Of a stretch of 64,000 nucleotides of DNA, positions 3,621-4,100 are shown in pieces. The notes beneath the pieces were generated by a model that saw nothing but the letters and a program-made list of their open reading frames with translations, ran no database searches and was not told where the DNA came from. The position numbers and the translations under genes were made by a program. Numbering within the stretch: the first letter of the stretch is position 1; each line of letters starts with the position of its first letter. The stretch is from NCBI RefSeq assembly GCF_016903815.1, contig NZ_CP069973.1. One strand, 5' to 3'. The DNA is from Escherichia coli. Lineage in GTDB: Bacteria > Pseudomonadota > Gammaproteobacteria > Enterobacterales > Enterobacteriaceae.

Positions 3621-3839
3621 ATCCTCACCCCGATGTACACGGATGGTGCAATATGTTTGAAAAGATCGGAGTCTACGGGGTAGTTTTGACAGCACACGTT
3701 GTTCTCAACGGCGCTAAAAAAACATACACATTAAAAATGTGGGTAATTATTTTGAAAGAAAGTCATATATAAAATAATAATACGAGAAATGTTTTCATAT
3801 TTAGTGTACTGTATACGGCCATTTATACAGGAAAAGCCT

Positions 3840-4010
3840 ATGTCAGAACGTAAAAACTCAAAATCACGCCGTAATTATCTCGTTAAATGTTCCTGCCCAA
3901 ACTGCACCCAAGAGTCAGAACACAGTTTTTCAAGAGTACAAAAAGGTGCCCTTTTGATCTGCCCTCATTGCAACAAAGTATTCCAGACAAATCTTAAAGC
4001 TGTAGCCTGA
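3840..4010 (+). CDS. Small zinc-ribbon-like protein (56 aa, CxxC…CxxC)
   Basis: Internal ATG of ORF 3789..4010 with AGGAAAAG upstream; followed by the terminator at 4077-4100. Confidence 0.35.
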   Translation: MSERKNSKSRRNYLVKCSCPNCTQESEHSFSRVQKGALLICPHCNKVFQTNLKAVA

Positions 4011-4076
4011 TTGATTTTATTAGTAACAAGTATTTTTTATATTTTAATAATATATTTAAAGCAGATAAATAAATAT

Positions 4077-4100
4077 CCTCCGGCATAGCCGGAGGTTTTT
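4077..4100 (+). terminator. Rho-independent terminator
   Basis: 8-bp perfect stem CCTCCGGC-ATA-GCCGGAGG followed by TTTTT. Confidence 0.65.

Follow-up and report, generated by a model that had tools for sequence, protein, structure and literature searches.

Does a stable hairpin followed by a run of thymines, close behind a small open reading frame (ORF), mean that the gene has a terminator of its own? The question arises in a 64,000-nucleotide stretch of Escherichia coli DNA (RefSeq assembly GCF_016903815.1, contig NZ_CP069973.1; called the window below), where such a hairpin stands beyond an ORF for a 56-residue protein with two CxxC motifs. A preliminary description of the locus had read the two as an independently transcribed small gene, possibly encoding a small regulator or an anti-defence factor. 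We find that the ORF is ynfU, a gene of a Qin-type lambdoid prophage, and that the hairpin belongs to the right end of the insertion sequence (IS) IS200C, where it is subterminal. The hairpin is no part of ynfU; the element inserted 56-58 bp past the stop codon of the gene. We are highly confident that ynfU with a hairpin supplied by IS200C is the best explanation of the locus as a whole.

The hairpin beyond ynfU and the right end of IS200C

The hairpin is composed of CCTCCGGC-ATA-GCCGGAGG, with stem arms at 4077-4084 and 4088-4095, and runs into TTTTT at 4096-4100. Its 8-bp stem is perfect and contains seven G-C pairs, the loop is 3 nt long, and the RNA folding free energy (dG) is -15.5 kcal/mol. 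The hairpin with its T-run occurs once in the window, where chance would give 0 matches.

We assign the hairpin to IS200C because it lies inside the insert defined by an empty site, is present in unrelated copies of the element and is missing from loci free of the IS. The empty site comes from strain DSM 103246, in which the locus is uninterrupted and ...GCAGATAA is joined directly to TAAAAAACCCGCC...; in a longer stretch, ...AAAGCAGATAA is followed at this junction by TAAAAAACCCGCCTGAGCGGGTTT..., and the window has 712 extra bases between them. The right end of the element carries ...CCTCCGGCATAGCCGGAGG..., and the alignment with the empty site places the start of the hairpin 10 bp inside the tip. 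In another strain, an independent IS200C copy lies between pgm and potE and ends identically, with the same hairpin. Among 5,426 complete E. coli genomes, the junction of ynfU with IS200C occurs in 58, compared with about 1,631 that have the ynfU locus and 2,599 with a match to the IS end by itself. Conversely, if the hairpin were a terminator dedicated to ynfU, it should follow the gene in the absence of the element. It is absent 3' of ynfU in IS-free loci: IS-free relatives have an entirely different downstream sequence, and IS-free loci in E. coli run straight to the hairpin AAACCCGC...GCGGGTTT. The preliminary description was thus right about the hairpin as a structure, with its perfect 8-bp stem and five thymines, and wrong in giving it to ynfU as that gene's own.

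The rest of the insert is consistent with this assignment (Table 1). Its transposase gene carries the RefSeq label 'IS200C family transposase'. Elements of the IS200/IS605 family have subterminal hairpins that are bound by TnpA, lack inverted repeats and do not duplicate their target (PMC3333891). Native IS200 is also described as ending in a weak terminator that belongs to the element (10.1101/2024.06.26.600842).

What, then, lay beyond ynfU before the element arrived? In the uninterrupted locus of strain DSM 103246, a native hairpin, AAACCCGC-CTGA-GCGGGTTT, begins 62 nt past the ynfU stop and is common to ynfU and the convergent gene cspB. In a terminator scan it scores as a terminator on the minus strand only, which is the sense of cspB. 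The IS landed right beside this native hairpin, and as a consequence the hairpin of the IS end now stands 66 nt past the stop codon of ynfU and, on the strand of this gene, has a better U-tract than the native hairpin. By accident of insertion, the IS hairpin has probably become the de facto terminator of ynfU in this lineage.

The ynfU locus also offers a view of where IS200C inserts. There are about 20 copies of the element per genome in this lineage. In both copies that were examined, the left end and the T/A-run side of a terminator hairpin are 6-8 nt apart; these neighbouring hairpins are that of cspB in the window (4779-4804) and GGGCGGTCGGAAGATCGCCC in the pgm-potE locus (1915-1950 of that sequence). 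Both copies are preceded by the same TTATT on the tnpA strand, and a similar sequence, TTTATTT, closes the right end. These observations suggest that the element selects a TTATT-like site on the 3' side of terminator hairpins. A separate observation concerns the interval 4020-4100 on the plus strand, which has a weak partial match to the Rfam model of the Yersinia small RNA Ysr202 (35 bits; gathering score 315). We do not regard this match as a real small RNA call; it probably arises from the family model having taken in the end of the IS200-like element IS1541.

The layout of a gene with its own terminator is, at this locus, an accident of IS200 insertion, in which an end hairpin that binds TnpA mimics an intrinsic terminator. 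Scans that delimit transcription units by hairpins should, beside IS200/IS605 elements, check the IS boundaries first.

ynfU, its reading frame and its upstream region

The product of the ORF is the 56-residue protein MSERKNSKSRRNYLVKCSCPNCTQESEHSFSRVQKGALLICPHCNKVFQTNLKAVA, with CPNC at residues 19-22 and CPHC at 41-44. It matches the curated models of the YnfU family at three to four times their cut-offs: Pfam PF23499 (YnfU) at E 3.5e-31 and 107.3 bits (cut-off 27), and NCBIfam NF038384 (YnfU family zinc-binding protein) at 79.4 bits (cut-off 36). The top protein cluster, which bears the NCBI name YnfU, is 98% identical. Over the stretch compared, which runs from position 644 to 50,000, the window is colinear with and 99.996% identical to E. 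coli strain 7/2 (NZ_CP023820.1), and RefSeq calls ynfU there (WP_211180497.1) at exactly the same coordinates. The window does not derive from strain 7/2 itself: its positions 1-643 hold an intact ydfO (DUF1398), and strain 7/2 has an IS1 insertion at that place.

The gene was therefore already known: it is named, it has Pfam and NCBIfam models, and its product has been detected experimentally in strain K-12. Weaver et al. (2019) found the 56-residue YnfU in K-12 by profiling ribosomes stalled at initiation. They detected the tagged protein by western blot, in stationary phase and without induction, and none of their other new small proteins was as abundant. They also noted that it has two CPXC zinc knuckles and that modelling gave a moderate match to PA0128 (bioRxiv 10.1101/511675). 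PIRT-Seq detected ynfU independently (PMC12350097). Subsequent papers mention YnfU as a putative metal binder, or report an intergenic ynfU/cspB polymorphism, and nothing more. We found no reported function for YnfU in the papers that could be searched, and no zinc measurement on it in those searched. Among the small proteins newly found in E. coli, YnfU is one of the better expressed.

A very short ORF in the AT-rich gap between essD and cspB might be a chance reading frame and no gene at all. The conservation of the frame leaves this idea with next to no credibility. The frame is kept in about 1,631 of the 5,426 complete E. coli genomes, in 8 deposited phage genomes and in 127 IMG/VR viral contigs, the last being almost all near-identical E. 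coli prophage copies that add little diversity. A frame without conservation in related phages, which by the preliminary description would have spoken against the gene, is clearly not what is seen. Homologues are present in Klebsiella, Enterobacter, Kosakonia, Salmonella, Lelliottia, Kluyvera, Franconibacter, Citrobacter and Superficieibacter. Across Enterobacterales, at prophage and non-prophage chromosomal sites, the ratio of nonsynonymous to synonymous substitution rates (dN/dS, Nei-Gojobori) is 0.04-0.21 where calculable, with proportions of differing sites of 0.6-0.95 (synonymous, pS) against 0.03-0.29 (nonsynonymous, pN). Synonymous sites are largely saturated, and the ynfU frame is under strong purifying selection. 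This selection, the matches to curated family models and the published detection of both translation and protein in K-12 refute a chance frame.

The family itself is narrow. An exhaustive profile search of 1.84 billion representative sequences returned 39 proteins at E <= 1e-3. The significant members that we inspected are small stand-alone proteins or run-on ORF calls, and no informative homologue within a larger protein was found among them; a few long multi-stretch matches near the threshold were left unexamined. In an alignment of 27 YnfU sequences, K5, L14, P20, C22, S26, E27, H28, S29, F30, K35 and P42 are invariant, and C19 and C44 are nearly so (>=90%). Distant members retain the pattern CPxC...S.HS..R[VI].K...L[IL]CPxC..LF.

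The start of the gene can be placed with the same comparisons. A Shine-Dalgarno sequence precedes the ATG of the 56-codon frame (Table 1), as the preliminary description had supposed, and its CAGGA core is present in 10 of 12 divergent ynfU loci, where G71 and A73 of the alignment are invariant. We ruled out a longer, 73-residue version that some phage annotations call from an upstream ATG at 3789, the position at which the range given in the preliminary description starts. In 4 of the 12 divergent relatives (loci L014, L085, L086 and L096) the extension is interrupted by in-frame stops, and one E. coli lineage (L053, L068 and L069) has a 1-nt deletion within it. The region of this extension is noncoding and belongs to the leader and promoter of ynfU.

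This upstream region contains two conserved boxes within 3776-3812, about 36-45 nt before the ATG. The downstream box, GTGTACTGT in the window, has the family consensus GTGTATGGT, of which T, A, G and T are invariant across the 12 divergent loci; an AAGCTAT-like box lies 17 bp upstream of it. Of three distant homologue loci checked, two (L102 and L107, which encode proteins of about 40% identity) keep the GTGTATGGT box with its spacing to the ATG unchanged. The box could be a weak TAnnGT -10 element with an unusual -35, or the site of a regulator. We rejected a LexA box, a sigma-54 promoter and an extended -10 as its identity, since spacing and key bases do not fit. A conserved RNA structure was rejected as well: the leader in the window holds a 7-bp CTGTATA...TATACAG stem, and RNAalifold predicts no pairs on the 12 divergent leaders. 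Rfam has no match on the plus strand upstream of ynfU, and in particular no cspA-type thermoregulator 5' untranslated region (UTR). Mean pairwise identity of the leader is 0.57-0.58, compared with 0.49 at third codon positions, a modest excess to which we give no weight. ynfU is probably transcribed from this upstream region of its own.

Table 1. Coordinates of the features at the ynfU locus and of the Kiwa genes in the same window
Feature	Position	Strand	Remarks
Sigma-70 promoter-like match TTGAAA-18-AATAAT	3752..3781	+	10/12 consensus; candidate
In-frame upstream extension	3789..3839	+	73-aa ORF version from ATG 3789; noncoding, leader/promoter region
Conserved upstream box GTGTACTGT	3804..3812	+	Family consensus GTGTATGGT; contains -10-like TAnnGT at 3807-3812
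Shine-Dalgarno AGGAA	3829..3833	+	7 nt 5' of the ynfU ATG; read from sequence
ynfU coding sequence	3840..4010	+	ATG 3840 to TGA 4010, 56 codons; 56-aa basic zinc-ribbon protein
IS200C	4067..4778	-	712 bp; 2-bp boundary ambiguity (up to 4069-4780); no target duplication
IS200C right-end subterminal hairpin and T5	4077..4100		+ strand: terminator-like for ynfU read-through; - strand: follows tnpA
tnpA (IS200C)	4177..4635	-	Y1 (HUH) transposase; NF033573 E 1.9e-43, PF01797 E 3.8e-38
IS200 5' tnpA leader, STnc490	4645..4768	-	Rfam RF01405, 146 bits (gathering 56)
IS200C left-end hairpin	4746..4768	-	dG -18.7 / -20.7
Native hairpin AAACCCGC-CTGA-GCGGGTTT	4785..4804		Ancestral end of the convergent ynfU/cspB pair, now separated from ynfU by the IS
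KwaB	12718-13740	-	PADLOC E 5e-158
KwaA	13743-14357	-	PADLOC E 1e-101

The YnfU protein, its neighbours and its possible roles

YnfU is a 6.4-kDa protein with an isoelectric point of 9.6 and a net charge of about +6.6. It is likely a single zinc ribbon in which one Zn2+ is held by the cysteines of the two CPxC knuckles. Cys17 is not retained in distant members of the family, which points to Cys19, Cys22, Cys41 and Cys44 as the predicted ligands. An AlphaFold2 model built with the family alignment has four strands (residues 13-16, 27-34, 38-40 and 47-49) and disordered termini, with a predicted local distance difference test (pLDDT) score of 63. The metal would clamp a small beta-sheet that displays an invariant surface, S26-E-H-S-F30 / R32-x-Q-K-G36, and a disordered tail rich in Lys and Arg would precede the ribbon at the N terminus. 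YnfU is too small for an enzyme and most likely acts by binding a larger partner.

The resemblances of YnfU to proteins of known structure are generic. The top Foldseek matches, which are not significant, are generic zinc domains, those of the ATCase regulatory chain and of PA0128 (rank 4). A profile search of PDB sequences gives marginal matches to L44e (E 0.027), the DNL finger of Tim15 (E 0.034) and PA0128 (E 1.4). Apart from YnfU itself, all Pfam zinc-ribbon families score below their own thresholds, including the PhnA/YjdM zinc ribbon PF08274 (22.4 bits, gathering score 30.8, E 1.3e-4). Since only generic zinc-ribbon resemblances are found, the best-supported mechanism is also generic: a zinc-stabilized mini-domain with a basic tail that binds a partner. 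RNA or another nucleic acid is our first guess at this partner, and a tentative one; the main alternative is that the partner is a protein.

The region around ynfU is the late and lysis region of a Qin-type lambdoid prophage. On the minus strand lie ydfT (the Q antiterminator), cspB, IS200C, the holin gene essD, ydfR, the lysozyme gene rrrQ and rzpQ; ynfU and cspF are on the plus strand. ynfU is a stand-alone gene of the moron type on the strand opposite to the late operon, which runs from Q through cspB, holin and lysozyme to Rz. It is divergent from the holin gene, convergent with cspB, and always stands alone with its own intergenic regions. The small, independently positioned zinc-ribbon gene of the preliminary description is therefore real, and what went unrecognized there is that it already had a name.

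Which role fits a gene in this position? An uncharacterized regulator or anti-defence factor, forming an independent unit up to a dedicated strong terminator, would account for a small stand-alone gene with a good ribosome-binding site in an accessory position of a prophage, and for the canonical-looking hairpin and T-run 66 nt downstream. This account is very unlikely. The hairpin is part of IS200C, so that the terminator claim is refuted; the gene is named; and the anti-defence role is unsupported. YnfU matches none of the PADLOC families, which span defence systems and not anti-defence, and its PHROG matches are weak, the best (E 0.0023) being to a family of unknown function. The abundance of the protein in uninduced, stationary-phase K-12 is a poor fit to an early lytic gene. 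Both close and distant homologues occupy ordinary chromosomal sites in Enterobacter, Lelliottia, Salmonella, Klebsiella, Kosakonia, Franconibacter and others, which speaks against a role specific to lysis or to phage counter-defence.

The same observation bears on the idea that YnfU is an accessory of the lysis cassette, modulating holin timing or expression of the late operon through the protein or through antisense transcription. In the Qin-type prophages of E. coli, in Klebsiella phage ST13-OXA48phi12.4 and in Superficieibacter prophages (where the holin belongs to Pfam Phage_holin_2_1), ynfU adjoins the upstream side of the holin gene, is divergent from it and is always antisense to the late operon, and one distant homologue sits between a lysis cassette and the terminase gene Nu1. 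Yet many family members are found in chromosomal contexts that have no lysis genes, and the published expression of YnfU in K-12 does not require induction. The interval between Q and S is, moreover, a classic site for unrelated morons. We consider a lysis role improbable. Less probable still is a kinship with the DNL zinc finger, by which YnfU would be a bacterial or phage escort or modulator of an Hsp70-type chaperone (DnaK). The PDB profile aligns CsCPnCsqeSEHSFsr..vqKGaqli.CPhC of YnfU with Tim15, and Pfam zf-DNL (PF05180) matches at E 0.074. Both scores fall short of significance (for Pfam, 13.5 bits against a gathering cut-off of 27), ribosomal L44e scores as well as Tim15, the YnfU family does not conserve the C-terminal region with the D-N-L motif, and Foldseek gives no significant match.

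The neighbours of ynfU suggest another direction. In 7 of 13 distinct contexts the gene next to ynfU encodes a cold-shock domain, with convergent, tandem and divergent arrangements all represented, and ynaE also adjoins a ynfU homologue in Lelliottia. It is possible, and in our view somewhat doubtful, that the role of YnfU is linked to the cold-shock gene cluster with which it travels. The more specific version, in which YnfU would be a basic, zinc-ribbon RNA-binding partner of a prophage or chromosomal Csp module, controlled through the conserved upstream boxes by a novel class of regulator or promoter, is unlikely.

We keep to ynfU as a selected gene for a likely zinc ribbon that most likely binds a partner, a gene probably transcribed from its own upstream region and probably now terminated at the hairpin of IS200C. 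Several points weigh against parts of this account. The stopping of ynfU transcripts at the IS hairpin is a prediction from sequence. Sigma-70-like sites in the upstream region number 4, compared with 3.8 in shuffled sequences, and the match at 3752-3781 is not conserved outside E. coli-type loci, for which reasons we list it only as a candidate. Zinc binding is predicted from the four-cysteine motif, the structural model is of only moderate confidence, and Foldseek finds no PDB match to it at E < 0.5. As for the cold-shock link, csp adjacency is absent in Enterobacter, in Franconibacter and in three distant homologues checked, and the association could be co-inheritance of one mobile ynfU-cspB module. 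The csp neighbourhood and the upstream boxes are two minor new observations, and they offer cheap, testable leads on YnfU function.

Further features of the prophage came to light in the same analysis. cspB has a full cspA-type thermoregulator 5' UTR (5039-5400, minus strand; Rfam RF01766, 135 bits, with the match cut at the edge of the searched stretch). cspI, cspF, ymcF, ynfR and ynfN are also present, which makes for a dense cluster of cold-shock morons around ynfU. The prophage carries a complete Kiwa anti-phage system (12718-14357, minus strand; Table 1), which adjoins a truncated ISNCY transposase gene and a queH-like gene (14566-15231). An element of the IS66 family, ISCro1 (tnpA, tnpB and transposase; 22763-25378, plus strand), lies between the excisionase and integrase genes of the prophage, a further sign of its degradation by IS elements. 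In phage HannyBb, about 20 tiny 'hypothetical' coding sequences (30-55 aa) are annotated between Q and ynfU (4585-7346). ARAGORN finds no tRNA genes among them, which rejects a tRNA array, and they are probably an over-annotation of a long non-coding late leader.

YnfU and IS200C among related systems

The closest relative of this gene is ynfU in the Qin prophage of E. coli K-12, which is the same gene, with the same length of 56 residues, the same two CPxC knuckles and the same slot between the holin gene (essD/essQ) and cspB. Unlike in K-12, the gene described here is parted from its native shared hairpin by IS200C, which adds a new one.

Like ynfU, the cold-shock morons of Qin- and Rac-type prophages (cspB, cspF, cspI, ymcF/ynfQ, ynfR and ynaE/ydfK) are stand-alone small genes in the same accessory regions. 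In contrast to them, YnfU has no cold-shock domain and ynfU no detected cspA-type 5' UTR.

With the N-terminal zinc ribbon of PhnA/YjdM (PF08274; PA0128, PDB 2akl), YnfU has in common the CPxC...CPxC zinc-ribbon topology; it differs in lacking the C-terminal PhnA domain and in having its own invariant SEHSF motif. The DNL-type zinc finger of Tim15/Zim17/Hep1 has similar spacing and residues between the knuckles (C-x2-C-x3-S-x-H-x2-S ... KG-x2-LI-x-CPxC), but here the match is not significant (E 0.03-0.07) and the YnfU family shows no conservation of the DNL tail.

The IS200C element at this locus is built in the standard way of the IS200/IS605 family. It encodes a Y1 transposase, has a hairpin at its left end and the STnc490 leader, and shows neither inverted repeats nor a duplicated target. 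The element itself is no different from its relatives. Its sole peculiarity is its position, which places an end hairpin where, on the opposite strand, it mimics a terminator of ynfU.

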